64,000 nucleotides of DNA, from the NCBI GenBank assembly GCA_024653205.1, contig JANLFO010000011.1, positions 4,940 to 68,939 of the forward strand, read 5' to 3'. The first letter of the stretch is position 1. Every line of letters begins with the position of its first letter. Below, piece after piece: positions 12,621-33,924 of the stretch. The stretch is from Clostridia bacterium. Lineage in GTDB: Bacteria; Bacillota; DSM-521; Neomoorellales; SLTJ01. The notes beneath the pieces were generated by a model. That model did no database searches and was not told the origin of the DNA. It saw nothing but the letters and a program-made list of their open reading frames with translations. A program made the position numbers and the translations under genes.

Positions 12621-12749
12621 GGCATACCCCTCCCTGCTCGTCGTTGTGCGCGCCGGCGCCAGTATACCACAGTCTGCCCTTGCGGTGAAGGATGTGCCGT
12701 CGGCGGCAGGATTAAGGCGAGATTTGGCGAAGTAAACTGCAAATTCGAT

Positions 12750-12842
12750 TTCGTCCGGGGCAAACCGGTCGAAAGGCCGGGACGCAAAGCTACGGGTCTA
12801 AGGCCTGCGGGGCTACGATCGCCGGGCTGCCGAAATCGGGGT
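12750..12842 (+). promoter_or_regulatory. c-di-GMP-I (GEMM-I) riboswitch aptamer, copy 1
   Basis: GGGGCAAACC-GGUC-GAAA-GGCC-GGGACGCAAAGCUACGGGUCUAAGG...GCCGGGCUGCCGA matches the conserved GEMM-I core known from Vc2 (GGGCAAACC..GAAA..GGACGCAAAGCC...GGGGUUACCGA). The GNRA-capped P1b helix covaries with copy 2. Lies 33 nt upstream of the fapA-like start. Confidence 0.8.
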
Positions 12843-12874
12843 GACGGCGGCCGGTCGTGCGGGGAGGAGAAAAC

Positions 12875-14785: not shown

Positions 14786-14838
14786 CGGAGGAGTCTTGGT
14801 TCTGCGGGGAAAAAATCACTCTGGGGAGGGCGAGATTC

Positions 14839-15324: not shown

Positions 15325-15362
15325 CCCGGACTTTGGGGGTGGAGTCCTTGGCCGGAACGGAT

Positions 15363-17414: not shown

Positions 17415-17992
17415 TCCGGGCGGTCGCCATCGCCGCCTCTACCGGCGGCCCGACCGCCCTGCAGAAGATAGTTCCCCGGCTGCCGGCTGGATTTCCGGCA
17501 GCCGTTTTCGTAGTCCAGCACATGCCCCCGGGGTTCACGCACGGGCTGGCGGTCCGCCTGGGTGAACTGGGGGAACTGCCGGTGCGGGAAGCGGTGGACG
17601 GCGAGCCGGTACTGCCCGGGCAGGTGCTGGTTGCCCCCGCCGGGCGCCAGACCTGGGTGGTACGAAGCGAGGGAGACGTAAAGGTGCGGGTTGGAGAGGC
17701 CGGCCCCGTGCCCGGCGCCTTTCGTCCCTCGGCCGACGTACTCTTCTACAGCCTGGCGGAAGCCTACGGGCAGGAAGTACTGGCCGTGGTGCTTACCGGA
17801 ATGGGCAAGGACGGCCTCAAGGGCCTGGCCCGGGTTAAGGAGAAAGGCGGCCTGATACTGGCCCAGGATGAGGCCTCGTCGGTGGTTTTCGGTATGCCCC
17901 GGGTAGCAATTGAGGCCGGTCTGGCCGACCTGGTGATGGGGTTGGAAGAAATGGCCGCCGCAATTGTCTCCCTGGTGCTAAAGAAGACTTAG
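17411..17992 (+). CDS. cheB: chemotaxis methylesterase CheB, catalytic domain only (no receiver domain)
   Basis: 193 aa. Catalytic-triad contexts ASTGGP (Ser), VQHMP (His) and TGMGKDG (Asp). The start overlaps the cheA stop (ATGA). No REC domain is encoded upstream in frame. Confidence 0.85.
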   Translation: MIRAVAIAASTGGPTALQKIVPRLPAGFPAAVFVVQHMPPGFTHGLAVRLGELGELPVREAVDGEPVLPGQVLVAPAGRQTWVVRSEGDVKVRVGEAGPVPGAFRPSADVLFYSLAEAYGQEVLAVVLTGMGKDGLKGLARVKEKGGLILAQDEASSVVFGMPRVAIEAGLADLVMGLEEMAAAIVSLVLKKT

Positions 17993-18006
17993 GGGGCGGC
18001 CGATAA
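17979..18006 (+). promoter_or_regulatory. sigma-28 (FliA/SigD) promoter TAAA-N16-GCCGATAA upstream of flgM
   Basis: TAAA at 17979-17982 and GCCGATAA at 17999-18006. Exact match to the -10 consensus. It overlaps the last codons of cheB, about 120 nt upstream of flgM. Confidence 0.8.
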
Positions 18007-18124
18007 CCTTACTAGAAGGCTCGGCCGGCGGCACATTTAGTACGGGGAAAAAGGCCGGAGCCGTGAAGCGGCGGGGTGCGGCGCCCGCCGCCGGCCGGGG
18101 CCGGGGGAGAACGCACCGGGGCAG

Positions 18125-18424
18125 GTGACGACGGTGAAGATCGAAGGGCGGGGCCCGGTGAAGCCCAAGCAGGTTTATCCGGTGGAGGAGACGGGGCCTC
18201 AGTCTGCGCGGGGTATAGGGTCCCGGGCCCAGGCAGACGAAGTCCGGGTTTCGGCCGAGGCGCGGCTGCGTCAGGAGATGCTGTCCCGCCTGAAGGGGCT
18301 GCCGGACGTCCGCAGCGAAGTGGTGCGAGAACTGGGCCGGAAGGTGGCAGAAGGAGAGTACGCCGTGGAGCCGGAGAAGCTGGCCGGGACCATGCTGGAG
18401 GAAATCGCCCGGCAGCGGCGCTAG
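18125..18424 (+). CDS. flgM: anti-sigma-28 factor FlgM
   Basis: 99 aa. The C-terminal half DEVRVSAEA...SEVVRELGRKVAEGEYAVEPEKLAGTMLEE fits the FlgM sigma-28-binding helices. Start is GTG 18125 or GTG 18134. Confidence 0.85.
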   Translation: MTTVKIEGRGPVKPKQVYPVEETGPQSARGIGSRAQADEVRVSAEARLRQEMLSRLKGLPDVRSEVVRELGRKVAEGEYAVEPEKLAGTMLEEIARQRR

Positions 18425-18471
18425 AGCCGGGGCTCCCGGCGGTACGCCTTGGGGACGGGAGGTTGGAAACC

Positions 18472-18957
18472 TTGCCGGATTTGTTGGGGGGGCTGATGGG
18501 GCTCCTGGAGGAACAGGAAGCCCTGATCCGGCGCCTTATCGAGCTGGGGCGAGAAGAGACCAGAGCCCTGAAAGCAGAAGATCTGGCCGGTCTGAGTGCG
18601 CTGATTGCGGAGCAGGAGCAGTGCGGGCGCAAGCTGCGCGAACTGGAGGTGCGCCGGCTGTCCCTCCAGCTGGAGCTGGCCCGACAGCTGGGCCTGGTAG
18701 AGGGTGAATCCTCCCTCCAGGGGCTGGCGGAGCGGGTCGGTCCGGGGGGAGAAGAGTTGGTGAACGCGGTGAAGCGGCTGCGCCGGAGCTTTGAGGAGCT
18801 CAAGGAGCTCAACCGGATAAACCGGGCCCTGGTGCAGCAGGCGCTGACCTACATCAACCGGGTGCTGGCGCTGCTGGGCGCGGGTACCGGAGGCTACGAC
18901 CACGAGGGGCAGGTAAAGGTGGCCCCCGAGCAGACCCGGGTAAACACCGTAGTCTAG
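18472..18957 (+). CDS. flgN: flagellar export chaperone FlgN-family protein
   Basis: Helical, about 161 aa (LLEEQEALIRRLIELGREETRALKAEDLAGL...), in the position between flgM and flgK. The long track ORF from 18076 overlaps flgM out of frame, so its N-terminal part is rejected. Start is TTG 18463 or 18472, after GGGACGGGAGG. Confidence 0.7.
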   Translation: MPDLLGGLMGLLEEQEALIRRLIELGREETRALKAEDLAGLSALIAEQEQCGRKLRELEVRRLSLQLELARQLGLVEGESSLQGLAERVGPGGEELVNAVKRLRRSFEELKELNRINRALVQQALTYINRVLALLGAGTGGYDHEGQVKVAPEQTRVNTVV

Positions 18958-18976
18958 GGGTAGAGGTGAAAAAGGA

Positions 18977-20758
18977 GTGCCTTCTCTGTTCTTTACCCTG
19001 AACATTGCCCGCCGGGGATTGACCGCCCAGCAGGCGGCGATGAACACTTCCGGCCACAACATCGCCAACGCCAACACCGAGGGCTACAGCCGCCAGCGGG
19101 CGGTGATGCAGACCACCACTCCCTGGCCGGTGCCCTCGGTGAATATGCCCGTAGGTGCCGGGCAGATCGGCACCGGCGTTGAAGTGGCACTTATCGAGCG
19201 CATCCGCGATACCTTCCTGGACCGGCAGATCCGGAACGAGCTGCAGGCCCTGGGGCATTGGGAGCAGCGCAGCGACGCCCTGCAGCAGGTGGAAGTGGTG
19301 TTCATGGAGCCGAGCGAGACCGGCCTGTCCACCCTTCTCTCCCAGTTCTGGGATAGCTGGCAGGAACTGAGCAAGTACCCCGAGAGCATGCCGGTGCGCA
19401 CCACGGTCATCGAGACCGCCCAGGCCCTGGCCGAGGCCCTGCGCCACACCCACCAGCAGCTTACTACCCTCAGGAGCGACCTCAACGAGCTAATCGATCT
19501 CAAGGTGGAAGAGATAAACACCCTGGCCCGGCAGATCGCCGACCTCAACCAGCAGATCTTCACCATCACGGCGGCCGGCATGTCCCCCAACGACCTCCTG
19601 GACCGGCGCGATTTGCTGTTGGACCAGTTGGGCAAGATCGTCGCCATCACCGTGGAACCGGTGACCATTGATCACGGAGGCCAAACCGTTGACACCGGGG
19701 CGGTAAGGGTTAGACTCCAATCCGGATATATAGACGCGGATGCCGACAGCGTTTACGACCCCGGCGAAGAAGTGACGATTGTGGACTGGGGTGCAAAGGC
19801 GTTCGTCCACGAGTTGCAAGTGGGCGAGGATGGCGGGATCGAGTGGCAGAAAAAGGATGTTGCGGGAAATGACGTAGGATTGCCCCAGGACGTGGCGGGG
19901 GCACTCGGCGGGGAACTGGAGGGGCTGTTGTACGCCCGCGACATCTTAGTGCAGGGGTACTTGTCTGACCTCAACCAGTTCGCATCGGGTTTAGCCGGGG
20001 TGGTAAACACGCAGCATCGGCGAGGCCTGGGTCTAGACCAATTGGGTGATCGTGACTTTTTTGTGGCCGGCACCGGAGGTAGCGTAGACGCGAGCAATAT
20101 CGAAGTTAACCCGGATCTGGCCGCTAACCCCGCGAAACTGGCCGCTGGGCTTTGGCGCGCCGAGATAGACTCCCTGGCCGGCGACGCTCAGGTGGGTCCG
20201 GGCGTTGAACACAGCCTCCTGTACCGGGTGGAAGTATCGGGAGGGCAGCTGCGGTTACAAGAGAGTTCCGACGGCGGTACTACTTGGCAGTACGTAGGCG
20301 GAAGCACTACCTGGGAGGCAGACCAACAGGTCACGGTAGGGGATCAGGAAACCGGCGAGACCTTGAGCTTTCTCTGCGGGTCCGGTGCTCCAGCCGATGG
20401 CACCTACGCGGTGACCTTCAGAAACGAGGTGGCCTCCGGTGACGGCACTAACGCCCTGGCCATCGCCCAGCTTCGGCGAGAGAAGATAGCGGAACTGGAC
20501 GGCTTCACCTTTGACGATTACTACAAGAACCTCATCGCCCGGCTGGGGGTGGCCTCCAACGAGGCCCAGCGCATGGCGGAGAACCAGAACGTGCTGGTGG
20601 AGCAGCTGAACCAGCGCAAGGAGTCCATTTCCGGGGTATCGCTGGATGAGGAAATGGTCAACCTCATCCAGTACCAGTACGCCTATCAGGCGGCGGCTCG
20701 GGTCATCACCGTGGTAGACGAGATGCTGGACACGATCATCAACCGGATGGCACAGTAA
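18977..20758 (+). CDS. flgK: flagellar hook-associated protein 1 FlgK
   Basis: 593 aa. N-terminus LNIARRGLTAQQAAMNTSGHNIANANTEGYSRQR and C-terminus GVSLDEEMVNLIQYQYAYQAAARVITVVDEMLDTIIN. Confidence 0.95.
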   Translation: MPSLFFTLNIARRGLTAQQAAMNTSGHNIANANTEGYSRQRAVMQTTTPWPVPSVNMPVGAGQIGTGVEVALIERIRDTFLDRQIRNELQALGHWEQRSDALQQVEVVFMEPSETGLSTLLSQFWDSWQELSKYPESMPVRTTVIETAQALAEALRHTHQQLTTLRSDLNELIDLKVEEINTLARQIADLNQQIFTITAAGMSPNDLLDRRDLLLDQLGKIVAITVEPVTIDHGGQTVDTGAVRVRLQSGYIDADADSVYDPGEEVTIVDWGAKAFVHELQVGEDGGIEWQKKDVAGNDVGLPQDVAGALGGELEGLLYARDILVQGYLSDLNQFASGLAGVVNTQHRRGLGLDQLGDRDFFVAGTGGSVDASNIEVNPDLAANPAKLAAGLWRAEIDSLAGDAQVGPGVEHSLLYRVEVSGGQLRLQESSDGGTTWQYVGGSTTWEADQQVTVGDQETGETLSFLCGSGAPADGTYAVTFRNEVASGDGTNALAIAQLRREKIAELDGFTFDDYYKNLIARLGVASNEAQRMAENQNVLVEQLNQRKESISGVSLDEEMVNLIQYQYAYQAAARVITVVDEMLDTIINRMAQ

Positions 20759-20774
20759 GAGGAGGCGTGAGACG

Positions 20775-21674
20775 ATGCGGGTTACCAACCGGATGCTGGC
20801 CACCACCGTGCTGGATAACGTGCAGGCGAACCTGGGGCGCCTGCAGAAGCTTCAGGACCAGATGTCCTCGGGTAAGCTGGTGCGCCGGCCCTCGGACAAT
20901 CCCATGGCCCTCTCCCGCATCATGGCCCTGCGCACGGGTTTGGCCGAGCAGGCGCAGCACACCCGTAACATGGAGGACGCCATCGGGTTTTTGGACGCCT
21001 CGGAAAGCGCCCTGGCCAAGTTCAACGATACCCTGCAGCGGGTTAGGGAGCTAACCATTTACGGCGCCAGCGGCACCCTTTCCGACTCGGACCGCCAGGC
21101 CCTGGCCAAGGAGGTAGACCAGCTGATCGACGAGTTGGTGCAGACCGGGAATACCGCCTACGCCGGCCAGTTCCTTTTCGGCGGGCAGGAGACTACGGTT
21201 GCGCCGTTGGAACGAGTCAACGGGGCGGTAGAGTATAGGGGCAACGGCTCGGCGCTGGTGTGGGAAGTCTCGCCGGACGTCACCATGGAGATCGGCGTGA
21301 CCGGAAGCACGATCTTCAAGGTTAGCGGCGTGCAAAGCCAGCTATTCGATACCCTTTTCAGGATCAAGACGACCCTAGAAAGTGGCACCAATTTGCAGGA
21401 CCTGAGCGGTACCCTTCTGGGCGAGGTCGATCGACACATAGACCACATCCTCCAGATGCGGGCCATCTACGGTGCCAAGAGCAACCGCCTGAACCTGGCG
21501 GTGGAGCGCAACGGCGAAAGCGAGATCAAGATGACCGAACTGCTGTCCCGCCTGGAGGACGCCGACCTGGCCGAGCTGGCCATGAACTACAGCATAGCCC
21601 AGTACGTGTACCAGGCCTCTCTGGCCACCGGTGCCAAGGTGATCCAGCCCAGCCTGGTAGACTATCTTACCTAG
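20775..21674 (+). CDS. flgL: flagellar hook-associated protein 3 FlgL
   Basis: 299 aa. MRVTNRMLATTVLDNVQANLGRLQKLQDQMSSGKLVRRPSDNP and C-terminal DADLAELAMNYSIAQYVYQASLA. Flagellin-superfamily termini, but HAP3 by size, position and the lack of flagellin N-terminal motifs. Confidence 0.9.
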   Translation: MRVTNRMLATTVLDNVQANLGRLQKLQDQMSSGKLVRRPSDNPMALSRIMALRTGLAEQAQHTRNMEDAIGFLDASESALAKFNDTLQRVRELTIYGASGTLSDSDRQALAKEVDQLIDELVQTGNTAYAGQFLFGGQETTVAPLERVNGAVEYRGNGSALVWEVSPDVTMEIGVTGSTIFKVSGVQSQLFDTLFRIKTTLESGTNLQDLSGTLLGEVDRHIDHILQMRAIYGAKSNRLNLAVERNGESEIKMTELLSRLEDADLAELAMNYSIAQYVYQASLATGAKVIQPSLVDYLT

Positions 21675-22505: not shown

Positions 22506-25500
22506 ATGCGAATACGCGGGGGGGCCCGGTCAAAAGCTCTGCTGTTGCTCTTCTTTATGCTGGCCAACCTGCTTCTTATCCCCGCCTCGCCGGTGCGGGC
22601 ACAAGACCATACGCCAGAAGTGACCGACATCGAGCCTGAGCAAGGCGGTATGGGTGGCGGCTACATAATGACCATCACCGGCTCCAACTTTGCCACCGAA
22701 GCTCAAGGGCAGGTGGAAGTCACCATTGGTGGCGTGGTCGCCCGGGTAGTGGAGCGTTCCGAGAACGAACTTAAGGTGGAAGTCCCGCCCCGCGATCCCT
22801 TGCCCACGGCGCCGGTGCCGGTGTTGGTAACCAATATAATCTACGGCCAACGCTACCCCGCCGCCCAACAGCCGGAGTTTGCCTATCTGGCCGGGCCGGT
22901 CATCGATTATGTGGCGCCCAACTACGGAAGCCTTGCCGGCGGTGCGTCCACCGGTACTGTTACCGTAATTGCCGGTAAGAACTTTCCGCTTCAAGAGTCT
23001 CAAGATTTGCTGGTCCTCTTCGGTGATGGGAGCGAGGCGAAGGAGGCCCAAATCGTAGACGTGGACTCGGATAACGGTCACTGGATCAAGGTTTACCATC
23101 CGGCAACGGAGTACGACACCGGCAATCCCGTGCCCGTAACCGTGCGGGTCTACCAGGGGAATGACTACGTGGAGGCGCGACTGCCCGACGCGTTCCGATA
23201 CAGTACCGCTCAGAGCGCTCCCAAAGTAACCGCGGTTTCGCCCAACGTGATAGCCAGCACTGGGGGCGATCTGACCGTCTACGGCCAGGACTTCCGTAGC
23301 TCTCTGGGGGCGGACGATGTACCCGTTTTTGCCGCTGTGTACCTCGAAAAGGATGGTGCCAGTTACACCTGCGAGGTAAGGCGCCTCACCTGTACCGCCA
23401 TGTTGGTCCGCGCGCCCTCCGGGCTTTCGTCGGGCCTTTACCGGGTGAGGGTGCGCAACCCCGATGGCCGGGAGACCACCATGGCCGCGGCTCTGACCGT
23501 GGTTCCTTCCGAGCAGGCCCTGCGCATCCTCAGCATCACCCCCAACGTGGGCAGCGTGGAGGGCGGGCTTAGGGTCACCCTGAAGGTGGTTAACCTGCCG
23601 TCAACCGAGAGCGATTTCCCCCGTGTGGTAGCGGTGAAGTTCGGCGACACCCCGGGGATTGAGCCAATAGAGGAGGACGCCAACACCATCGCCGTGACCA
23701 CTCCCACCCAGATGCCCGAGGGGGTCTACAACGTTACCCTGGAGGTAACCTACAAGCAATCCGGCCAAATCAAGCAGCAGGTGGCCGTGTTGCCTCAGGG
23801 TTTTCGATTCGCCATTCCTGCCAGTCGGCCTCGGATCGAAAAGGTTGACCCGTACTTCGGGTCGCCCGGCGGCGGAACGCTGGTGACCATATACGGCTCC
23901 GATTTCCGCTCCCCCGCCGAAGGGGAGGAGATCGTCGTCAGGTTCGGCGGAAAAGAAGCCGACAAGTCCCAGGTCCAGGTGGTCAGCCCGACGGAGATCA
24001 AGGTGGTGACACCTAAGGCCGGCACGGCTGGCGCGGTGGACGTGGAAGTGATCAACCCGGACGGCGCCCGTGCGGTGCTTCCCGGGGGTTTCGTCTACGT
24101 TTCTAGCCCGCCGTGGCTGCAGAGCGTGTTGCCCGAATCGGGAACCGTGGGAGAGACGGTGTACCTTTATGCCACCAACCTGGCCTACCGTCCGGAGGAC
24201 ATCGGCCTCGTCCGGCCGAAAATCGCGAACGGCTTGCCCGAGAATGAGTCTAACCTTACTTTTTACCCTATGGAAGGAGTCAATCTTACCGACCTGGGCG
24301 CCGGAGCCTGGCGGGTAGAGGCCCAGGTGCCAAAGCTTGTCAGGCCGGGCCCCGCGGTGGTGCGCATAGAAACCCCTTATGGAGTTTCCAACCCCTTGGA
24401 GTTTACCGTCCTTTCGGGCTTTCCCCCGCCAAAAGTCCAGGAGGTTTCGCCCTCTCGAGTGTCCACGAGGGGTGGGGCGAAAGTAACGGTCAGGGGGGAA
24501 AACTTCCGTAAGGGGGCGGTCGTCAAGTTAGAGAGCGGTGATCTGAGCAATGTCCTCAGTAACGTCGAGGTAACGAGCCCTACGGTGATAAACTTCACGA
24601 CGCCCAATCTCATTCCTGGCAAGTACCTTGTCCGGGTGATCAATCCCGACGGAAAAGAGGGCATCTGGAAAGACAGGTACTTTACCGTCTACAGCGAGCC
24701 CAGCATCACCCGGGTCAGCCCGGCAACGGGCAGCGTGTACGGGGGCAATATCATCACCGTGACCGGCGAGGACTTCTACCCCGGCGCCCAGGTGGTGCTG
24801 CGGATAAAGGTCAGCGATACCGTAACGAAAGAAGTGTACGCGGAAGGTAACGACGTTGAGGTGAAGGGCCGCAACGAGCTTCTCTTCCGCCTCCCTCCGG
24901 CGGGGATAGAGTTAGACTTGGACAAACGGGTCTTGGCGGACGTGGTAGTGGAGAACCTCGACGGCGGCAGGGGCGAATTGCCTAACGGCTTCACCTACTG
25001 CTGTCCGCGGACAAGCCCCGAAATCAAGTCCGTTGTGCCGCCCCGTGGCCCTACGGAGGGGGGGATACCGATACTGGTTCTCGGTTCCGACTTTCGTAAG
25101 GGTGCGCGGGTGTTTATCGGCTGGAAGGAAGTCGATACTCAAGAGGTGCAGGTAGAGGATTCTACTCTCATCAAGGTGGGAGAAATACCGGGGCAGCCGA
25201 AGGACCTGTACCCCGTAACGGTCGTGAACCCTGATGGTGGGGCCGCCGTGTTTGAATCTGGCTTCCAGTATTTGGAGCCCGAGACGGAGCCGGTTATTGA
25301 CACCATTTACCCCGACAAGGGGCCAAACGACCGGTCCATCCCGGTGATCATCCGGGGCAAGAACTTTCTGCCGTATTCGGATGTTTTCTTCGGTCCGTAC
25401 CCCGCCGCCGAAGTAGAGTGGCGGGACAGCACCGTGCTCAAGGTCTACACCCCCGTAGTTCCCGAATATCTCGGCACGGTGGACGTGTACGTGCTAGATC

Positions 25501-28085
25501 CCAACGGCGGCACGGCGCTGAAGAAGGGCGGCTTCACGTTCATGAGGCCCGCCTACTTGCCGGAGATAACGAACATCACCCCCGATAAGGGTTCTACCGA
25601 GGGCGGTACCCTGGTGGTGATCACCGGCAAGAACTTCTTCACGGGAGTAAAGGTATACTTCGACGGGCTGCCCGCGCGTTCGGTAGAACTCCTAGACAAA
25701 GTAGTGATCGAGGGCGAGGAGTTCGACCGGGTGGTGGCCGAAACTCCGCCCCACCCGCCCGGTCGGGTGGACGTGACCCTGGTAAACTGGGACGGCGGCG
25801 TGGCTACGAAGCCCGACGCCTTTACCTACGTCCTAGCTGGCACGCCACCTGAGATCCTCAAGGTGGACCCCCCGGAAGGCCCGGCCATGGAGGAGACTAG
25901 GGTTACTATCTATGGCCGCAACTTCCAGCCGGGGACCCCTGAGAACCCGCTCACGGTATATTTTGGTTACACCCCGGCAAGAGTAGAAAACGTTGATTAC
26001 GACACCATTGTGTGTGTCGCTCCGGCTCTGCCCGCCGGAAAGGTGAAGGTGCGGGTGGTGAACCCCGACTTCGGCGAGGCGGTCTGGGACGGATACTTCG
26101 TCTACCAGGCTTCGGTTCCCAGGATTACGGCGGTGAATCCCGATCAGGGACCAAAGCAAGGGGACTACCGCGTAACCATCCTGGGCGAGGATTTCCGGCC
26201 GGGACTGGTGGTCTACTTTGGTCAGGAAGGACTCAGGGTGGAGGAGATTACAATCACAGAGGACCTATGCAGCGTAAGGGTGTACGTCTATCGAGATGAA
26301 CACCGTACCGCCGGACGGGTAGACGTACGGGTTGTGAACCCCGACGGCGCCGAGGCGGTGCTGAAGAACGGGTTCACGTACACCAGCCCGGCTTCTAATC
26401 CCACCATTGCCGGGGTCACGCCGGACAAGGGTCCAACCACCGGCGGCATCTGGGTGACCATCAGCGGAACCGACCTGCGGGAGGAGGCGCGGGTGTACTT
26501 CGGCGGCAGGGAAGCAAGCCGGGTGCGCTTCATCGACAACCAGACCCTGCTCGTCCTCATCCCCGCCCACCCGGAAGGGACGGTGGCGGTGACGGTGGTG
26601 AACTACGACGGCGGCACCGATACCTGGGACAAGCCTTTTACTTACGTTACCCCCGTATCCAGCCCCCATATCGACCGGGTGGTACCCAATAAGGGGCCGC
26701 ACGTGGGCGGGACCAGCATCACCATCTACGGCCTGGACTTTCGCAGCGGGGCGGCGGTGTACATCGACGGCGTCCCCGCGAAAGAGGTCGTGTGGGTCAG
26801 CTACAAGGAGATCACCTGCGTGACCCCCGGCGGGAAGCCGGGAAAGGTCGATGTCACCGTGGTCAACCCAGACCAGGACGCCTACGGCGCCTACACCGCC
26901 CCGAACGCCTTCACCTACGTGGAGGTCGAGGTGCCCACCATCACCGGGGTGGAGCCGGACCGGGGCCCGAAAAAGGGCGGCACGGCCATTACCATCACCG
27001 GCACCGGCTTTGCCTCCGGGGCCAGGGTCTGCATCGGCGGCAAGGAGGCCTTGGAAGTCAGGGTAGCCGGCGGGACCCAGATCACTGCTGTCACCCCTCC
27101 GGGAGAACCGGGGCGGCAGGACGTGAGGGTGGAGAACCCCGATGGCGGTTACGCCGTGTTGGAGGACGGCTTCCTGTACCTGGGGCCGCCGGAGGAGCCG
27201 GGATGGCTTTCCGCCAGTCCGGTTGACGAGCGCACCGTGGAGCTGGAATGGGAGGAAGTGGAGTTTGCCACCGCCTACGAGATCTTCGTGGCCAGGGAGG
27301 ATGGCGGGCCGTACGCCTTCCTGGACCGCACCACCGCCACCACCTACTACGCCACCGGGCTGGTTCCCGACCAGGAGTACTTCTTCCGGGTGCGGGCGGT
27401 GAACGACCAAGGCATTTCGGTGCTGTCGGAGGAAACCTGGTCCTGGACCGATGAGGCGGAGGAAGACGAAGAGGATGAGGCCTCGGTGCCGGAGGAGCGC
27501 CTGGAAGGGAACATCCTTTATGTTACCCTGACCAACGGCTACGCCTGGAGAAACCTGGGCAGCACGCTGGACCTGACGCAGACCGCCCACGCGGGCGCAG
27601 GCGGGCTGTTGCTTCGCGTTCCGGTGGACGTGGCCCTCGCCTACGGCCGCAGCCTCAGGGTGGTGGGCCTGCGCTATTCGGTGGAGATCCCGTCGGCCGT
27701 GTTCGCGCCGGCACAAGCGCGCCGCCTGAGCTCGGCGGAGCGGGCAGAGTCGGCGCTGGTGCTGCAGCTGGAGGAGGTGCCGGCGGCCGAGGCGGCCGAT
27801 CTGGCCCGGCAGGCGCCGGGCCGGGTGATCTCGCGGATGCTGCGCCTGACTCTGAGGCTGGAGGGCGCAGGGAACAGAAGCGTGCTTTCTGATCTGGGGA
27901 GCTACGCGCCGGTTACGGTTGCCGTCGATCCCAACCTCGCCCGGGGCCGCACGGTGGGCCTGTACCGGTACCGCCCGGAAAGGGGCTGGGAGCGGCTGGG
28001 CGGGCAGCCCTCGCCCGGCTGGCCCCAGGTAATCGGCGCGGGCAACCTGACCGGCATCTTCGCCGCCGTGGCCGAGACCAGGTAG
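22506..28085 (+). CDS. giant secreted surface protein: signal peptide + 16 IPT/TIG repeats + FN3 domain + acidic linker + unknown C-terminal domain
   Basis: 1859 aa from ATG 22506 (or GTG 22494). Signal peptide ALLLLFFMLANLLLIPASPVRA|QD. I counted 16 repeats of 85-95 aa with the pattern P-x-I-x-x-V-x-P-x-x-G-x-x-x-GG-x-x-V-T-I-x-G-x-x-F...V-x-V-x-N-P-D-G. FN3-like segment at 27192-27450 (TVELEWEEVEFATAYEIF...YFFRVRAVN). Acidic linker DEAEEDEEDEA. The last 195 aa or so have no recognised family. No SLH, LPXTG or TM anchor. Confidence 0.85.
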   Translation: MRIRGGARSKALLLLFFMLANLLLIPASPVRAQDHTPEVTDIEPEQGGMGGGYIMTITGSNFATEAQGQVEVTIGGVVARVVERSENELKVEVPPRDPLPTAPVPVLVTNIIYGQRYPAAQQPEFAYLAGPVIDYVAPNYGSLAGGASTGTVTVIAGKNFPLQESQDLLVLFGDGSEAKEAQIVDVDSDNGHWIKVYHPATEYDTGNPVPVTVRVYQGNDYVEARLPDAFRYSTAQSAPKVTAVSPNVIASTGGDLTVYGQDFRSSLGADDVPVFAAVYLEKDGASYTCEVRRLTCTAMLVRAPSGLSSGLYRVRVRNPDGRETTMAAALTVVPSEQALRILSITPNVGSVEGGLRVTLKVVNLPSTESDFPRVVAVKFGDTPGIEPIEEDANTIAVTTPTQMPEGVYNVTLEVTYKQSGQIKQQVAVLPQGFRFAIPASRPRIEKVDPYFGSPGGGTLVTIYGSDFRSPAEGEEIVVRFGGKEADKSQVQVVSPTEIKVVTPKAGTAGAVDVEVINPDGARAVLPGGFVYVSSPPWLQSVLPESGTVGETVYLYATNLAYRPEDIGLVRPKIANGLPENESNLTFYPMEGVNLTDLGAGAWRVEAQVPKLVRPGPAVVRIETPYGVSNPLEFTVLSGFPPPKVQEVSPSRVSTRGGAKVTVRGENFRKGAVVKLESGDLSNVLSNVEVTSPTVINFTTPNLIPGKYLVRVINPDGKEGIWKDRYFTVYSEPSITRVSPATGSVYGGNIITVTGEDFYPGAQVVLRIKVSDTVTKEVYAEGNDVEVKGRNELLFRLPPAGIELDLDKRVLADVVVENLDGGRGELPNGFTYCCPRTSPEIKSVVPPRGPTEGGIPILVLGSDFRKGARVFIGWKEVDTQEVQVEDSTLIKVGEIPGQPKDLYPVTVVNPDGGAAVFESGFQYLEPETEPVIDTIYPDKGPNDRSIPVIIRGKNFLPYSDVFFGPYPAAEVEWRDSTVLKVYTPVVPEYLGTVDVYVLDPNGGTALKKGGFTFMRPAYLPEITNITPDKGSTEGGTLVVITGKNFFTGVKVYFDGLPARSVELLDKVVIEGEEFDRVVAETPPHPPGRVDVTLVNWDGGVATKPDAFTYVLAGTPPEILKVDPPEGPAMEETRVTIYGRNFQPGTPENPLTVYFGYTPARVENVDYDTIVCVAPALPAGKVKVRVVNPDFGEAVWDGYFVYQASVPRITAVNPDQGPKQGDYRVTILGEDFRPGLVVYFGQEGLRVEEITITEDLCSVRVYVYRDEHRTAGRVDVRVVNPDGAEAVLKNGFTYTSPASNPTIAGVTPDKGPTTGGIWVTISGTDLREEARVYFGGREASRVRFIDNQTLLVLIPAHPEGTVAVTVVNYDGGTDTWDKPFTYVTPVSSPHIDRVVPNKGPHVGGTSITIYGLDFRSGAAVYIDGVPAKEVVWVSYKEITCVTPGGKPGKVDVTVVNPDQDAYGAYTAPNAFTYVEVEVPTITGVEPDRGPKKGGTAITITGTGFASGARVCIGGKEALEVRVAGGTQITAVTPPGEPGRQDVRVENPDGGYAVLEDGFLYLGPPEEPGWLSASPVDERTVELEWEEVEFATAYEIFVAREDGGPYAFLDRTTATTYYATGLVPDQEYFFRVRAVNDQGISVLSEETWSWTDEAEEDEEDEASVPEERLEGNILYVTLTNGYAWRNLGSTLDLTQTAHAGAGGLLLRVPVDVALAYGRSLRVVGLRYSVEIPSAVFAPAQARRLSSAERAESALVLQLEEVPAAEAADLARQAPGRVISRMLRLTLRLEGAGNRSVLSDLGSYAPVTVAVDPNLARGRTVGLYRYRPERGWERLGGQPSPGWPQVIGAGNLTGIFAAVAETR

Positions 28086-28098
28086 GGGAGGGAACGGA

Positions 28099-30531
28099 GT
28101 GGCGCAGGTAAGGCGTTGCCTTGGAGCGGTCCAAGGGCGGTGTCTGATAGCGGGATTCCTCCTGCTCCTCGCCTCTTACTTCTTCCTCCCGGTGCAGGCC
28201 GTGGCCCAGACCCGGACCTATTCGGGCTGGATCGGAGCGGCGCGGGTGGCGTCCCGGCTGAACTACTCCGATCTTTCCGGCCACTGGGCCAGGGAAGCGA
28301 TACTGCGGGTGGCTTCGCTGGGAGTCCTCACCGGCGAGGGCGGCCGGTTCCGGCCCCAGGCGGCGCTCAGCCGGGAGGAGGCCCTGACCGCGTTACTTTC
28401 CCTGTCGGGCAGCGGGACGCGCGGCACCGGCCTGCTGGACAGGGCAGAAGGAGCGGGAATAGTGACCCGGGAGGAGAGGGCCGGGCTGGAGGGCAATCTG
28501 GCGGCTGCGGTGCAGAGGCAGGAGTTCGGCGCCTGGCTGGCCCGGGCCGCGGGACTTGCGGAAGCTGCGGGCCCGGGCAATCTGCGCCTGGCAGGTTTTT
28601 CCGATGCCGCCAGGGTCCGGCCGGAGTACCGGGGCGGGCTCGAGTTCCTGCTGGAAAGAGGCTGGCTTGCCGGCAGGGGCAGAACGCTGGCACCCCAGGC
28701 CTCCATTACCCGGGCGGAGGCGGCCAGCCTGCTTTATCGTGCCCTGCCGGAGGTTTTGCCCGCGCGCGGCTGGGAAGTGCTGCAGGGAGTGGTCGCGGCC
28801 GTGGATGAAGTGCGGACCGCCCAGGGCCTGCGCCTGACGGTTCAGGTGGCTGCGGCCGGAGGGGACAGCGTGGAACTGGTGGCCGGGCCGGGGGCCGGAA
28901 CCGCCGCCGGCCCGGACTGGCCGGTGGTAGCCGGGGGCAGGGTTGGCACCGCCTCCGCCCTGTCTGCCGGTCAGGTGGTGCGGGTGTGGATTACTCCTCC
29001 CACGGTGCGGATGGCAGAGGTTCTGTCCGGGCAGTCGCAGCGAAGCAGCGGCACGCTGGCCGCGGTGGATGCCGGCCGGGGGGAAATCACGGTGCTGATT
29101 AACGGCCGGTCGACCGTTCTCTCCCTGCACCCGGGGGCCAGGATCAGCGTGGGCGGCAGTGCCGCCCGGCTGTCCGATCTCCTGCCGGGTCAGGAGGTGG
29201 AGCTCTCGCTCCGGGGCGGCATGGTGGAGGAATTGGCGGCGGAGCTGCCGGTTCCGGAACTGGCCGCCTACGCCGAGACGCCCGGCCGGGTGGTGACCGG
29301 GTACCTGGCCGGGTGGGATGGGAGCCGGCTGCGGGTGGTGCTGGCCGGGGGGCAGGAACAGAGCTACTACCTTTCCCCGGCGGCGGCCGTAGTCTCGGGC
29401 AGCCGGGCCGTGGCGCCTTCCGAACTGCGGGTGGGAGACCTGCTTCGGATTACCATTTCGGACACGCCGGCGAGTACCGCCACCCGGGTGGAGGTGGCGG
29501 CCGGAGCGGCCCGGGAGGAACTGTGGTACGGGCGGCTGGCCGGGGTGCTGGTTCAGGACCGGGTGGTGCTGGTTTCCCAGCCGCGGCGGCTGTACTTCGG
29601 CCGCTGGCTGTCCCAGGGCGGGCAGCGGGCCTTTGCGCTCTCGCCGGAGGCACGGGTCTATCGGGGGGCAACGGCGGCCGAACTGGAGGACCTGAGGAAC
29701 TTGATGGGCAGCCAGGTATTCCTGAGCGTGGGGCAGCCGTTCGGACGGGAAGAGGCAGCCTGGCTGGCCCTCCGGGAAGGAGAGCCCTGGATCTACCAGG
29801 ACCGCCTGGCGGACTGGGACGCGGGGCGCCGGGTGCTCACCCTGAGCGGGGGAACGCGTTTGACCCTGCCGGAGGAGGCGCGGGTACTGGCGGCCGGCCG
29901 GGCCGTGGATCCGGCCGGCCTGGAGACCGATCGGCCCCTGGTGGCCGTGGCCGCGGATGCCGGCGCGGTTTTCGTGGAGCAGACCGAGTACTACCCCTCC
30001 TCCTGGTCCTTCTACCGGGGCGAGGTTGAGGAAGTGGAAGAGCGGTGCCTGGTGCTGGACAGCTGGAGCCGCTTTGACGGTGATTACTGGTCCGATACCC
30101 GATATCGCGATAAGGAACTGACGCTAACCGGCGATACGGTAGCGGTGGACGCCACGGGCGCGCCGCCGCGAGTGCTCGATCTGTATTCCTTCCTGCAGGC
30201 GCGCCACACCGGCGCCTTCGACGGCAGGCAGGTTTATGTGGTGGCCGACGGTTCGGACCGGGTGCGGGCGGTGGTGCTGCGCGACGAGGAGCGCGGCCCG
30301 GAGGTGGCCTCCCTGGCCACGGTAGGCGGTTCGGGCGAGTTTGCCGACGTACTGTCCTGGAGCCCGGAGTACCGGGCCTGGCGGGAACTGGGGGCCTCGC
30401 TGGCGCTGGATACCTCGAAGGCCCTAGTGTTCCGAAACGGATACTGGGTGGGCCCGGCGGCCCTGGCCGAGGGCGACCCGGTGTACTTGCTTCACGACTA
30501 CGAGGAAGCGCTGATCGTCTTTCTTCAGTAA
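28099..30531 (+). CDS. secreted SLH-domain protein (N-terminal SLH region + array of small beta-module repeats)
   Basis: 810 aa. Signal peptide LLLLASYFFLPVQAVA|QT. SLH motifs YSDLSGHWAREAILRVASLGVLTGEGGRFRPQAALSREEALTALL and FSDAARVRPEYRGGLEFLLERGWLAGRGRTLAPQASITRAEAASLLYRAL. They are followed by at least 5 degenerate 65-85-aa repeats. Starts 13 nt after the IPT gene stop (SD GGGGAGGGAA). Confidence 0.8.
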   Translation: MAQVRRCLGAVQGRCLIAGFLLLLASYFFLPVQAVAQTRTYSGWIGAARVASRLNYSDLSGHWAREAILRVASLGVLTGEGGRFRPQAALSREEALTALLSLSGSGTRGTGLLDRAEGAGIVTREERAGLEGNLAAAVQRQEFGAWLARAAGLAEAAGPGNLRLAGFSDAARVRPEYRGGLEFLLERGWLAGRGRTLAPQASITRAEAASLLYRALPEVLPARGWEVLQGVVAAVDEVRTAQGLRLTVQVAAAGGDSVELVAGPGAGTAAGPDWPVVAGGRVGTASALSAGQVVRVWITPPTVRMAEVLSGQSQRSSGTLAAVDAGRGEITVLINGRSTVLSLHPGARISVGGSAARLSDLLPGQEVELSLRGGMVEELAAELPVPELAAYAETPGRVVTGYLAGWDGSRLRVVLAGGQEQSYYLSPAAAVVSGSRAVAPSELRVGDLLRITISDTPASTATRVEVAAGAAREELWYGRLAGVLVQDRVVLVSQPRRLYFGRWLSQGGQRAFALSPEARVYRGATAAELEDLRNLMGSQVFLSVGQPFGREEAAWLALREGEPWIYQDRLADWDAGRRVLTLSGGTRLTLPEEARVLAAGRAVDPAGLETDRPLVAVAADAGAVFVEQTEYYPSSWSFYRGEVEEVEERCLVLDSWSRFDGDYWSDTRYRDKELTLTGDTVAVDATGAPPRVLDLYSFLQARHTGAFDGRQVYVVADGSDRVRAVVLRDEERGPEVASLATVGGSGEFADVLSWSPEYRAWRELGASLALDTSKALVFRNGYWVGPAALAEGDPVYLLHDYEEALIVFLQ

Positions 30532-30556: not shown

Positions 30557-32104
30557 ATGGCTGGGCGGCAGCTGCGGGTGGCAGCCCTGGTGGCGCTGGT
30601 TGCGGCCCTGGCGGCATTCCTCCCGGTTCGTCCGGCACTGGCCCGGGGAGAGGAGCGCGTGTCCGGGGGCATAGGCGCCGGGAGCGAGTACAGGGAGCTT
30701 TACCTCTTCGGCGGCCGGCCGGTGGTGCTGACCGGCCAGGCGAAGGTGAGCAGCAGCGCGGCCCGCAATGGCAAGGCTCAGGTGCGGATAAGCTACAACC
30801 TGAAGAACGAGGCCAGCCAGGTCACCCTCTCCCGCAGCCTGACTCTGGCCGGAGAGGAAGAGGAGGCTCTGGACGGCCGCCAGGTGCTCACCAGCCTCAC
30901 CGCTACCGGCTTCACGGAAAGCATCCGGGCGGGGAGTAACCGCTATACCCTGCGGCGCGGAGACTTCTCCTACACCCGGCTCACCGACCGGGCGGGCGGC
31001 GTGGAGTACTTCACCAGCAATTGGAGCGGGACCAAGGTCTACGACTTTAACAGCGATCAAGGGACCCTGACCGTGCAGGTGTGGGGGCGGGGAGTGGGCT
31101 ACGACCACGCGTGGGGCAGCACGGAAACGCAGCATCTGGATCTCATCCTGGATTTTGAGGGCCGGATAGAGGAGAAGGGCGCCGACCGGCAGGTAACCAC
31201 CTACAAGGTGGAGTGGAGCGGTTCGGCTTCACTGGATCTGACCTACACGCGCTGGCGCCGGCTGGACTACGTGGAAAACGAGGCGGTCCCGATCAGCTTT
31301 GCCGGCGGCTACCTGGAGAGCCGGGGCGAGCAGGCCAGCCTCAAGTACGAGGTGGATCTCCCGGTGCTGGATTCTCTGGGCCGGGTGGTGAGCGGGGGCC
31401 GGGTCCGGGAGGAGGGGACCCTGGGACTGGAGTCGACCCCCACCTACGCCCGGCTGCCGGTACCGCCGCTGAGGGATCTGCAGGGGCACTGGTCCTGGCA
31501 GGAAGTCCTGCGTCTGGCCAGCCTGGGGGTGCTCGCCGCCGGGGAGTATTTCGGCCCGGAACTGCCGGTAACCAGGGGCGACTTCTGCCTGGGGCTGGCC
31601 CGGCTGCTGGAGCTGGAAGCGGCGAAGGCGGCGCCGGCCGTTCCCGTTCCGATCCTGGCGCTGACGAATCCGGCCCGGCAGACCACCACCACCGCCTCCC
31701 CTCCCTACCTGGATGTTTCGGAGGACAGCCCCTACTACGCGGCCGTAGAGGCCCTGCAGCAGCGACGAATCCTGGACAGCGCCGGTCTTTACCTCCGGCC
31801 CAATGAGGCCCTGACCAGAGCCGAGGCGGTGGCCCTGGTGGTCAGGGCTCTGGGCCTGGAAGGTCTGGCACCGGCCGCACTGGTGCAGACCCCCTTCCAG
31901 GATGACTACGCCATCCCTTCCCGCTTCAAGCGCGCTGTCTGGGTGGCGGAGCGTCTGGGGCTGGCAGGGGGCACCTCGGGCGGGTACTTCCAGCCGCAGC
32001 GCCGCATGACCCGGGGAGAAGCCGCCGCCCTGTTCAACCGCACCCTGAGTTACCTTCAGGACGGCCTCCGGCGGGATTACCAGACCCTCGTCCGGTTCCG
32101 GTAG
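30557..32104 (+). CDS. secreted protein with an unknown beta-rich N-domain and three C-terminal SLH domains
   Basis: 515 aa. Signal peptide ALVALVAALAAFLPVRPALA|RG. C-terminal SLH motifs LRDLQGHWSWQEVLRLASLGVL...VTRGDF, YLDVSEDSPYYAAVEALQQRRIL...LTRAEAVALVVRAL and FQDDYAIPSRFKRAVWVAERLGL...MTRGEAAALFNRTL. Confidence 0.8.
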   Translation: MAGRQLRVAALVALVAALAAFLPVRPALARGEERVSGGIGAGSEYRELYLFGGRPVVLTGQAKVSSSAARNGKAQVRISYNLKNEASQVTLSRSLTLAGEEEEALDGRQVLTSLTATGFTESIRAGSNRYTLRRGDFSYTRLTDRAGGVEYFTSNWSGTKVYDFNSDQGTLTVQVWGRGVGYDHAWGSTETQHLDLILDFEGRIEEKGADRQVTTYKVEWSGSASLDLTYTRWRRLDYVENEAVPISFAGGYLESRGEQASLKYEVDLPVLDSLGRVVSGGRVREEGTLGLESTPTYARLPVPPLRDLQGHWSWQEVLRLASLGVLAAGEYFGPELPVTRGDFCLGLARLLELEAAKAAPAVPVPILALTNPARQTTTTASPPYLDVSEDSPYYAAVEALQQRRILDSAGLYLRPNEALTRAEAVALVVRALGLEGLAPAALVQTPFQDDYAIPSRFKRAVWVAERLGLAGGTSGGYFQPQRRMTRGEAAALFNRTLSYLQDGLRRDYQTLVRFR

Positions 32105-32130: not shown

Positions 32131-32157
32131 TAAAGAAAGGCGGCGCCGGGCCGATAA
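32131..32157 (+). promoter_or_regulatory. sigma-28 promoter TAAA-N15-GCCGATAA upstream of flaG
   Basis: TAAA at 32131-32134 and GCCGATAA at 32150-32157. It starts 26 nt after the stop of the preceding SLH gene and ends 40 nt upstream of the flaG start. Confidence 0.8.
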
Positions 32158-32196: not shown

Positions 32197-32559
32197 TTGA
32201 AGGTAGAGGGTGTGGACCGGGTAGTGTTGGAGCAGATCCGGGCACGGGCCGAGCAGGCGGAAGTAACCCAGACCCGGGATCTGCGCATCCGGAGCGAGGA
32301 ACAGCAGGACCAGGAGCGCCGCCATGCCCAGGAGCCTCAGGAGCAACTGCGTCAGGCGGTGCGCCAGCTCAACGAGGCCACCGAGGTCTTCAACATCCGG
32401 CTGCGTTTCAAGCTGGACCGGGAAACCGGGGAGATCTACGTGCTGGTGATCGACCGGGAAAAGGGAGAGATCATCCGCCGCATTCCACCGGAAAAGGTGA
32501 TAGAGATGGCCTCCCGCATGCAGCACATGATCGGCCTTCTGCTGGACGAACTGGTGTGA
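32197..32559 (+). CDS. flaG: flagellar protein FlaG
   Basis: 120 aa from TTG 32197 after GAGGAGG. C-terminal LRFKLDRETGEIYVLVIDREKGEIIRRIPPEKVIEMASRM matches the FlaG family pattern. Confidence 0.8.
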   Translation: MKVEGVDRVVLEQIRARAEQAEVTQTRDLRIRSEEQQDQERRHAQEPQEQLRQAVRQLNEATEVFNIRLRFKLDRETGEIYVLVIDREKGEIIRRIPPEKVIEMASRMQHMIGLLLDELV

Positions 32560-32789
32560 CGGGAAGGCGGGGTGGTTTCCCGTCGTACCCGACACCGTCC
32601 GCGACGGACTTGAGCTTGTAGCGGCCTCGCCCGCGGCCCCCGCAGGCCCTGTCCGGTTCGGCCACCCCGACCAGGTCGCGCTTAAGCTGGGCGGGACCGA
32701 ATCGGCAGGGGGCGATCCGAGCGGCAGACTTCTAGAAAAGGGAGGGAACGGCTCCGCCTTGGGCTTTCCGTCCGGCGGGCCGGCACGGC

Positions 32790-33209
32790 GTGTACGCTTC
32801 ACAGCCTTATCAGGCCTATCAGGAGAACCAGGTTCAGACCCAACCCCAGGAGAAACTGGTGCTGATGCTCTACGATGGCGCCCTGCGCTTCATCCGCCAG
32901 GCTCAAGACGCGGTGGCGGCCAGGCGATACGACGAAACCAGCTACTATCTCGGTCGGGCGCAGGACATTCTGAGCGAACTGATGCTCACCCTGAACCTGG
33001 AGGTGGGCGAAATTGCCCACCGGCTTTACGCGCTTTACGATTTCATGTACGGGCACCTGGTTCAGGCCAACCTCAAGAAGGACGCCCGGATGATGGCCCA
33101 GGTTTACCGGCTCTTGAGCGAGTTGCGCCAGACCTGGGAGGAGGCGACCCGCATTTACCACAGCCACAACTACCTCACCCGGCCCGGAGGGCTGGAAGGC
33201 CGCCGCTGA
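32790..33209 (+). CDS. fliS: flagellin-specific export chaperone FliS
   Basis: 139 aa. PYQAYQENQVQTQPQEKLVLMLYDGALRFIRQA...IAHRLYALYDFMYGHLVQAN is a typical FliS four-helix pattern. Confidence 0.9.
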   Translation: MYASQPYQAYQENQVQTQPQEKLVLMLYDGALRFIRQAQDAVAARRYDETSYYLGRAQDILSELMLTLNLEVGEIAHRLYALYDFMYGHLVQANLKKDARMMAQVYRLLSELRQTWEEATRIYHSHNYLTRPGGLEGRR

Positions 33210-33628: not shown

Positions 33629-33789
33629 CTGCTTACAAAGGGATGGCCGCAACTGGCCATTCCTCCGGGTGTGCCGGTTTGCCTTTCTCGACATTATCTC
33701 CCTCTAAGCACAATTTTTTTTATCCGTCTGGAGGATTCTCCCTTTCGGCGTGGAATATTTAGTCGAAAATACCAAAAGGGCCAACATTC

Positions 33790-33880
33790 GCCGCTAAGGG
33801 CAAACCACTCGAAAGGGTGGGGCGCAAAGCCACGGGTCTAAGGCCGAACTCAAGGCTAGGACCGCCGGGTTGCCGGAGAA
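33790..33880 (+). promoter_or_regulatory. c-di-GMP-I (GEMM-I) riboswitch aptamer, copy 2
   Basis: AGGGCAAACC-ACUC-GAAA-GGGU-GGGGCGCAAAGCCACGGGUCUAAGG...GCCGGGUUGCCGGA. Same conserved core as copy 1 and Vc2. P1b carries compensatory changes relative to copy 1 (CCGGUC/GGCCGG vs CCACUC/GGGUGG). Confidence 0.85.
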
Positions 33881-33896
33881 TGCTTCACGAGTCTCC

Positions 33897-33924
33897 GACC
33901 GCCCGACGGGGGGTCTTGTTTTTT
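33897..33924 (+). terminator. intrinsic terminator forming the riboswitch expression platform
   Basis: GACC(G)CCC-GACG-GGGGGTC stem followed by TTGTTTTTT. It ends immediately before the flgB SD (GGAGGGG, 33925-33931). Confidence 0.7.

Follow-up and report, generated by a model that had tools for sequence, protein, structure and literature searches.

A secreted protein of 16 IPT/TIG repeats, encoded with two SLH-domain proteins in the flagellar locus of a Clostridia bacterium

The gene described here lies in a 64-kb stretch of DNA from a Clostridia bacterium (GenBank assembly GCA_024653205.1, contig JANLFO010000011.1, positions 4,940 to 68,939; hereafter the window). It encodes a secreted protein of 1859 residues with 16 tandem IPT/TIG (Ig-like) domains, the TIG protein, and it heads a trio that is completed by two genes for SLH-domain proteins, SLH810 and SLH515. 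Among described systems, its nearest counterpart is CmoA from Paenibacillus sp. NAIST15-1, a secreted protein that has a signal peptide as well as eight IPT/TIG domains in tandem and is located around the cells, being present in secreted and surface fractions alike (Kobayashi et al. 2016, PMC5072692). The cmoA gene follows yvyC(flaG)-fliD-fliS and is induced together with the flagellar genes; its product is needed for movement on hard agar, and an extracellular supply of CmoA restores this movement (PMC5072692).

The TIG protein resembles CmoA in that both are large, Sec-secreted proteins with tandem IPT/TIG domains and no described wall anchor of their own, encoded in the neighborhood of the late flagellar genes flaG, fliD and fliS. 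CmoA differs by its eight rather than 16 TIG domains and by an N-terminal vWFA domain, and it possesses neither an FN3 (fibronectin type III) domain nor an equivalent of the C-terminal domain of the TIG protein. Its gene is positioned after fliS, whereas the TIG gene stands between csrA and flaG, and no SLH partner genes were reported for CmoA. The TIG protein shares with CmoA the signal peptide, the tandem TIG domains and the late flagellar location; it lacks the vWFA domain, for which the Pfam scan gave no match, and its repeat 1 begins four residues past the signal peptide. We draw this likeness from the published description of CmoA, namely from a generic TIG fold and its genetic setting.

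A second point of reference is SlhA from Paenibacillus alvei, an SLH protein needed for swarming whose loss leaves the flagella in place (PMC3776848). SlhA sets a precedent for an SLH-anchored surface protein that affects surface motility; unlike the trio, it is a single protein of 1335 residues with its own SLH domains, and the homology to SLH810 and SLH515 established here is that of the SLH repeats. In the literature that we searched, no description of a flagellar-cluster SLH/TIG module came to light, CmoA and SlhA being the only cases returned. The third comparison is offered by the cellulosome of Clostridium thermocellum, in which the scaffoldin CipA is held by the SLH proteins SdbA, OlpB and Orf2p via type II dockerin-cohesin interactions. 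There, as would be the case in the trio if the docking that we propose takes place, a long modular protein without an anchor of its own ends in a C-terminal docking module that is received by separate SLH proteins, and ahead of the docking module stands an Ig-like or FN3-like one, as the FN3 domain stands ahead of the C-terminal domain in the TIG protein. Pfam and PDB sequence searches detected, however, neither a dockerin in the C-terminal domain of the TIG protein nor a cohesin in its SLH partners; the trio carries no enzymes or carbohydrate-binding domains, and its context is flagellar, not cellulolytic. Finally, giant adhesins and stalks with arrays of Ig-like repeats (Big, TIG and FN3 arrays, and the NF058597 proteins) share with the TIG protein a signal peptide, a long diverged array that serves as a spacer, and a repeat number that varies between orthologs (here 16-21). 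Such proteins usually carry an anchor of their own, be it an LPXTG motif, PEP-CTERM, a type IX secretion system C-terminal domain or SLH domains. The TIG protein, unlike them, ends in an orphan globular domain and would depend on two partners.

By inference from its gene linkage, the TIG protein may be viewed as a giant surface protein of Ig-like repeats whose anchoring would be mediated by partners. The explanation that we favor, with evenly balanced confidence, is that of a Sec-exported fibre docked non-covalently on a wall-bound pair of SLH proteins and expressed together with the motility regulon.

Anatomy of the TIG-repeat protein and its SLH partners

Translation from the ATG at position 22506 yields the N-terminus MRIRGGARSKALLLLFFMLANLLLIPASPVRA followed by QD. 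We take this codon as the start because the N-terminus is kept in the ortholog P0002 (1836 residues), which begins alike (MRRYGRARSK...ARAQDYTPQV); a shorter start chosen by one gene caller on the identical contig L001 would trim the signal peptide. The only hydrophobic window of the protein (residues 7-14+19) falls within the signal peptide, and with nothing hydrophobic beyond residues 1-33 there is no transmembrane segment. No lipobox is present in the first 45 residues, so that the protein does not qualify as a lipoprotein; the Pfam scan gave no SLH match; and a C-terminal LPXTG motif with a hydrophobic tail was not found, LPESG-type strings being internal only and the C-terminus reading ...IFAAVAETR. 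These hydrophobicity and motif checks bear out what the initial annotation had proposed, namely a protein that is exported by a signal peptide, has no SLH, LPXTG, transmembrane or lipobox anchor, and is followed by two proteins that do carry SLH domains.

The repeat region is recognized by the Pfam TIG family (PF01833) with an E-value of 3.9e-153 and 498 bits, 13 stretches passing the threshold, and by the NCBIfam model NF058597, the 'choice-of-anchor Z repeating domain', with 248.1 bits in nine stretches (curated cut-off 30 bits). A hidden Markov model (HMM) iterated on the protein's own repeats finds 15 units and leaves a gap of 110 residues (532-641), in which a degenerate repeat 6 (residues 535-637) aligns to the repeat pattern with an E-value of about 0.2. 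Since the 1836-residue ortholog has a scoring TIG domain at just this position, and 16 in all, the count of 16 given by the initial annotation is right, with 15 clear repeats and one degenerate one. The single FN3 domain and the acidic linker that had been read from the translation were likewise recovered at their places, and the orthologs have acidic linkers at the same site. Also correct was the suggestion of repeat divergence at the DNA level: identity among the codon-aligned repeats averages 44% and reaches 56% at most, the gene has no tandem array with a period of ~270 nucleotides (nt), and its longest direct repeats measure 48-55 nt with 60-81% identity.

Conservation is unevenly distributed along the TIG protein. 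Relative to the closest ortholog, repeat 1 is 76% identical, repeats 2-13 are 42-66% identical and repeats 14-16 are 68-74% identical; the FN3 domain is the best-conserved part (81%), and the C-terminal domain stands at 59%. Two ends that are more conserved than the middle fit a spacer whose tip and base are both functional. In the same vein, repeat number differs among orthologs (16, 18 and 21) and the FN3-linker-C-terminal end is kept, the pattern that one would expect if the stalk served as a spacer and its end had a function.

The C-terminal domain of ~195 residues, which the initial annotation could not place, is indeed an orphan. Pfam offered no family at E<=10 for the window protein and six orthologs, and a PDB sequence search gave no match either, so that no known wall-binding or sortase-independent anchor was recognized in it by these two routes. 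A word-indexed search of 5.8 billion proteins returned no homolog, and an exhaustive phmmer search of 1.84 billion cluster representatives matched the domain to itself, to one ortholog (59%) and to one spurious protein. The latter, P0003 (E 3.6e-7), was rejected as a relative; it is repetitive and compositionally biased, with 59 residues matched seven times. Across the six orthologs, identity in this domain ranges from 15 to 58% by alignment; in the distant ones, tblastn and alignment place a domain of the same length at the same position with 15-19% identity, and these share the motif (L/V)Y.Y......W(E/Q) near its end. The single-sequence AlphaFold2 model of the domain reached a predicted local distance difference test (pLDDT) score of 42 and is unusable.

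The two SLH proteins align with each other across their three SLH repeats. PDB profile matches of SLH810 are limited to the SLH structure of Sap from Bacillus anthracis (3pyw), and those of SLH515 are confined to its SLH part and include the same B. anthracis Sap structure. In distant copies the SLH810 C-region matches its HMM two or three times, which suggests an internal duplication. For the N-terminal domain of SLH515 (nucleotides 30644-31471), an AlphaFold2 model computed from three sequences (pLDDT 65.5) shows a meander in which 12 antiparallel strands, each 13-21 residues long, succeed one another; Foldseek found no significant PDB match for it. Two highly conserved motifs of this domain, VGYDHAWGSTETQ and NEP.PISFAGGYLE, point to a specific binding or catalytic site. 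In the public annotation of the same contig, the TIG and SLH proteins are labelled just as IPT/TIG or SLH domain-containing. As a separate observation, the GC content shifts sharply within the trio, from 60% midway through the TIG gene to 72% in the SLH810 gene (2-kb windows, positions 24000-30000); candidate causes are amino-acid composition, SLH810 being rich in Ala, Gly and Arg, or a different history.

Flagellar placement of the trio and candidate control signals

Nearly the whole window is taken up by a single locus for flagella and chemotaxis. Ahead of the trio stand fapA, cheW, cheA, cheB, flgM, flgN, flgK, flgL, fliW and csrA; behind it follow flaG, fliS, a small open reading frame (ORF), flgB, flgC, fliE, fliF, fliG, fliH, fliI, fliJ, fliK, flgD and flgE. 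Farther downstream come motB, fliL, fliP, fliR, flhB, flhA, flhF, a MinD-like gene, a PilZ gene and fliA, and then rod genes, cheD, cheR, cheC, fliM and fliY. By position, the trio accordingly belongs to the late flagellar operon, with csrA before it and flaG after it. In Firmicutes such as B. subtilis, the slot after fliW-csrA is usually occupied by the flagellin gene. No flagellin gene was found in the ~50-kb flagellar locus or elsewhere in the window, flagellin domains being present only in flgL. Nor was fliD found in the window: tblastn detects no remnant of it, and the flaG-fliS gap (32559-32790) spans 230 nt; in the close relatives L003 and L004, fliD lies between flaG and fliS. This flagellar placement had no part in the initial annotation.

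The intergenic distances are short, with 83 nt between csrA and the TIG gene, 13 nt between the TIG and SLH810 genes, 25 nt between the two SLH genes, and 92 nt between the SLH515 gene and flaG. A scan of the window for the sigma-28 promoter pattern TAAA-N13-17-CCGATA gave two matches where 0.10 were expected, and these two flank the trio, one before flgM and one before flaG (Table 1). Between csrA and flaG, the 83-nt csrA-TIG gap included, no terminator-like site rises above chance. The simplest reading is that the trio would be the distal portion of a transcription unit running from flgM through csrA; its co-transcription, and likewise its co-expression with late flagellar genes, is what the promoter motifs and the absence of a terminator lead us to infer. 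The sigma-28 motif before flaG is also present in L003 and L011. Riboswitches for cyclic dimeric guanosine monophosphate (c-di-GMP) bracket the block in the window and in the ortholog locus L003, and the flgB riboswitch is conserved in L003, L004 and L017, where the copy before flgB is a tandem one. A CsrA-type control of the TIG mRNA was also considered, given that the TIG gene occupies flagellin's usual slot behind csrA, and GGA motifs are present in the leader and the Shine-Dalgarno region. They are not obviously conserved in L003, L011 and L013, which leaves this idea unsupported, and they carry little weight because they are expected in a purine-rich, GC-rich leader.

Table 1. Features of the TIG-SLH810-SLH515 region and its flagellar surroundings (positions refer to the window).
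Feature	Position	Strand	Evidence or remark
c-di-GMP-I-GGC riboswitch aptamer before fapA-cheW-cheA-cheB	12750..12835	+	Rfam RF03167, 69.6 bits (gathering 59); upstream edge of motility block
Sigma-28/SigD-type promoter match TAAAGAAGACTTAGGGGGCGGCCGATA	17979..18005	+	~120 nt 5' of flgM; nearest upstream promoter candidate for the unit reaching the TIG gene
flgM, 99 residues	18125-18424	+	ORF reading
csrA, 79 residues	22180..22422	+	PF02599 gene call on identical contig L001; directly 5' of TIG gene
TIG gene, 1859-residue secreted TIG-repeat protein	22506..28085	+	ORF 22494/22506-28085; Pfam, NCBIfam, own HMM
Sec-type signal peptide, residues 1-32	22506..22601	+	Predicted cleavage between VRA and QD; conserved in orthologs
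16 tandem IPT/TIG (Ig-like) domains	22614..27179	+	Repeat 1 from residue 37, repeat 16 to residue 1558
FN3 domain, residues 1564-1643	27195..27434	+	PF00041, 36.1 bits (gathering threshold 25)
Acidic linker DEAEEDEEDEA	27450..27482	+	Translation
Orphan C-terminal domain, ~195 residues	27498..28082	+	Predicted mostly beta; candidate docking module
SLH810 gene	28099..30531	+	Signal peptide, three SLH repeats (~residues 52-219), then ~590 residues of undefined fold; Pfam SLH E 1.8e-16
SLH515 gene	30557..32104	+	Signal peptide, N-terminal all-beta domain of ~270 residues, three SLH repeats (~residues 301-500); Pfam SLH E 5.1e-21
Second sigma-28/SigD-type promoter match TAAAGAAAGGCGGCGCCGGGCCGATA	32131..32156	+	Pattern scan; just past SLH515 stop, before flaG; downstream end of the trio's unit
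flaG	32197..32559	+	PF03646, E 1.2e-26
fliS	32790..33209	+	PF02561, E 3.6e-39
c-di-GMP-I riboswitch before flgB	33789..33877	+	Rfam RF01051, 80.9 bits; start of next flagellar operon

Related loci and the history of the module

For comparison we collected loci by ortholog look-ups (L003, L004) and by two collection scans with an alignment of the SLH515 family (35 further loci, L008-L042). All were mapped with flagellar queries and with four HMMs, which represented the TIG repeat, the C-terminal domain, the C-region of SLH810 and the N-domain of SLH515. The order TIG-SLH810-SLH515 is kept in 13 independent loci (the window, L003, L004, L008, L011, L012, L013, L014, L015, L017, L018, L022 and L023), among which SLH515 identity falls as low as 26-39%. 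Their TIG protein ends in the FN3 domain, an acidic linker and the C-terminal domain, its gene stands directly 5' of the SLH pair, and the trio genes are tightly spaced or, as in L013, overlapping. In the loci examined, the C-terminal domain occurs solely in this arrangement. The initial annotation had envisaged a long rod held on the wall by its SLH partners; of this proposal, a functional partnership of the TIG protein with the two SLH proteins is supported by the strict conservation of gene order in 13 loci, and physical docking, through the C-terminal domain in particular, is putative.

In nine of the 13 trio loci, the trio lies inside or beside late flagellar genes. It is enclosed by csrA on one side and flaG or flagellin on the other in the window, L003, L004, L011 and L017, and by flgL and flagellin in L013; in L008, L014 and L015, flagellin is found just 3' of it. 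This placement is retained down to 35-39% SLH515 identity and through several local rearrangements. The trio of L022 lies outside a flagellar locus and has a gene for a methyl-accepting chemotaxis protein upstream. Here a sigma-28-type match TAAA-N15-GCCGATAA (full match TAAATGAAAAAGCGCCATCGCCGATAA) is located ~55 nt 5' of the TIG Shine-Dalgarno sequence and ATG, behind a terminator-like hairpin, and a promoter-like match by chance is unlikely in so short an interval. With respect to a TAAA-N15-GCCGATAT-type promoter, the TIG gene is a candidate member of the SigD/sigma-28 regulon: matches flank the trio in the window and one stands directly 5' of the TIG gene in L022, and none occupies that position in the window, L003, L011, L013 or L017.

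The module of the SLH pair is wider than the trio. The pair of SLH810 and SLH515 homologs (SLH810h-SLH515h) is present in every locus with enough flank, and loci such as L020, L021, L023, L027, L032, L035, L037 and L039 document its broader occurrence. A flagellar linkage of the pair-only loci L032, L035, L037 and L039 through 'FliA' matches 6 kb upstream was not counted because these matches are weak (E 1e-8 to 4e-15) and AddA, MBL and MurA genes on the other strand intervene. When the SLH515 N-domain is placed in a tree by neighbour joining, the loci that have only the pair are basal, those with a TIG gene are nested among them, and those with a flagellar context make up one derived clade. 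From this topology, a likely history is that an older envelope SLH pair gained a TIG partner and that the trio was afterwards relocated to the late flagellar operon in one lineage, where it stayed. That the SLH pair is older than the TIG protein and separable from it adds a context that the initial annotation did not have.

Two of these loci deserve a brief description of their own. In L013, the region behind the trio (11675-21129) holds flagellin, a Maf-type flagellin glycosyltransferase, a radical SAM/B12 enzyme, NeuC/NeuB-like genes, an acetyltransferase and a nucleotidyltransferase; judged by its gene content, this set is a flagellin nonulosonic-acid glycosylation island. In L011 (1364-7214 and 11811-12883), the TIG gene is split into two overlapping ORFs, by a frameshift or an assembly error, and a DDE transposase lies between the trio and an inverted flagellin gene.

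A proposed docked fibre and its rival explanations

The docked fibre that we favor would be built as follows. The TIG protein would be exported by Sec, and its 16 TIG domains together with the FN3 domain would form an extended, semi-rigid stalk of ~60-70 nm, Ig-like domains measuring ~4 nm each. This stalk would probably be held non-covalently by an SLH810/SLH515 complex, itself bound to the wall polymer via the SLH triplets. Repeats 14-16, the FN3 domain, the acidic linker and the orphan C-terminal domain would make up the end proximal to the wall, with repeat 1 as the distal tip. Its genes stand between csrA and flaG in a late flagellar operon that presumably depends on SigD/sigma-28, so that production of the fibre would coincide with flagellation. 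Its role would probably lie in cell-surface or cell-cell contact, or in surface conditioning, during motility; this is the weakest step of the proposal, which we base on the CmoA analogy and the regulatory context.

A number of findings weigh against this proposal. With regard to docking, profile-profile comparison found the C-terminal domain unrelated to any part of either SLH partner, the domain resembles no known docking module in Pfam and PDB sequence searches, and its conservation is just moderate. As the FN3 domain and the last repeats are conserved above it, their region is at least an equal docking candidate. With regard to motility, no sigma-28 motif stands directly 5' of the TIG gene in the window, L003, L011, L013 and L017, whereas neighbouring flagellin genes have a perfect one, and a hairpin with a T-run follows csrA in L011 and L017, so that read-through from the flagellar operon is not assured everywhere. 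Moreover, the csrA/flagellin/flaG region holds other cargo as well: an FAD oxidase in L003 and L004, a transposase in L011, toxin-antitoxin-like ORFs, and the glycosylation genes of L013. Unrelated, non-flagellar genes lie 3' of the trio in L012, a locus from the cultured isolate Thermoanaerobacterium sp. DL9XJH110, and non-flagellar genes are found downstream in L010 too; in L023, which is the most basal of the loci with a TIG gene, this place is taken by an S41 peptidase and pyrG. In distant loci, the SLH pair without a TIG partner is found beside an S41 (CtpB-like) peptidase with a peptidoglycan-binding domain, the CTP synthase gene pyrG or a murA-like gene. Given an older pair in envelope contexts and the cases of L023 and L012, the flagellar placement may be a single relocation that was then inherited, in keeping with the one derived clade of flagellar-context loci. 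These genomic contexts would be accounted for if the trio were a general envelope or S-layer-associated structure without a functional tie to the flagellum, its position being the historical accident of a single insertion inherited at a variable spot. We consider such an explanation possible, but somewhat doubtful: the flagellar placement has outlasted divergence to 35-39% SLH515 identity together with local rearrangements, the trio of the window lies between two sigma-28-type promoter matches without an intervening terminator, the displaced trio of L022 has a sigma-28-type promoter match of its own and an upstream chemotaxis receptor gene, and CmoA provides an experimentally supported precedent.

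The missing anchor could also mean that the TIG protein is untethered and released as a soluble or loose matrix protein, with the SLH proteins acting separately and the C-terminal domain serving oligomerisation or ligand binding. CmoA, which occurs in both secreted and surface fractions and complements its mutant from the outside (PMC5072692), sets an example for this, and a C-terminal domain unlike the SLH partners and unlike known docking modules would be in line with it. This option is nevertheless unlikely in view of an invariant TIG-SLH-SLH order, with intergenic distances of 13-25 nt in the window and genes that overlap in L013, and of a C-terminal domain that never stands apart from the SLH pair in the loci examined. 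Still further removed, and in our view highly improbable, is a flagellar accessory, for instance a collar or a guide at the point where the filament passes through the SLH-decorated wall, standing in for functions linked to the missing flagellin and FliD genes. The occupation of the usual flagellin slot after fliW-csrA and the lack of flagellin and fliD genes in the window speak for it. The signal peptide, however, marks a Sec substrate rather than a flagellar type III substrate, a rod of ~60 nm made of a variable number of 16-21 Ig domains is unlike a ring or bushing, trio-bearing relatives keep flagellin and FliD alongside, and the trio also occurs outside flagellar loci.

Surface proteins with long arrays of Ig repeats are common, and the usual regulation of adhesin-like fibres runs counter to that of flagella. 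A giant protein of this type is familiar as such; what adds interest is its conserved late-flagellar placement, here in flagellin's usual slot with sigma-28-type promoter matches flanking it and c-di-GMP riboswitches bracketing the block, and the presence of three domains without known relatives or folds, the TIG C-terminus, the SLH515 N-domain and the SLH810 C-region. These three orphan domains make the trio a candidate for a new mechanism of non-covalent wall docking. Going further than the docked fibre as such, we tentatively put forward, as a possibility that we would not press, that the trio is an undescribed surface organelle of S-layer/SLH-bearing thermophilic Clostridia, a three-protein fibre of ~60 nm with a new docking mode other than cohesin-dockerin, belonging to a sigma-28/c-di-GMP regulon and needed for surface motility or for contact while swimming. 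If that were so, an adhesin-like structure would be switched on with the flagella and not opposite to them. With CmoA as the sole experimental precedent, the trio suggests that secreted TIG-repeat proteins may recur as accessories of flagellar motility in Firmicutes. As Thermoanaerobacterium sp. DL9XJH110 is a cultured carrier of the trio, the idea is directly testable.

Some minor observations concern the flagellar genes around the trio. The long ORF 18076-18957 owes its 5' end to an artefact: flgM is read in another frame, and the flgN start lies inside it near residue 135. The flgB riboswitch is followed by a hairpin with a T-run (~33880-33918), an arrangement that is similar in Clostridioides difficile. 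The ORF behind fliS (33242-33628; 117-128 residues in gene calls on identical contigs) has no Pfam match; its product is helical and rich in charged residues, and it stands at the fliT position. In L011, an ORF between fliD and fliS matches FliT/FlgN weakly.

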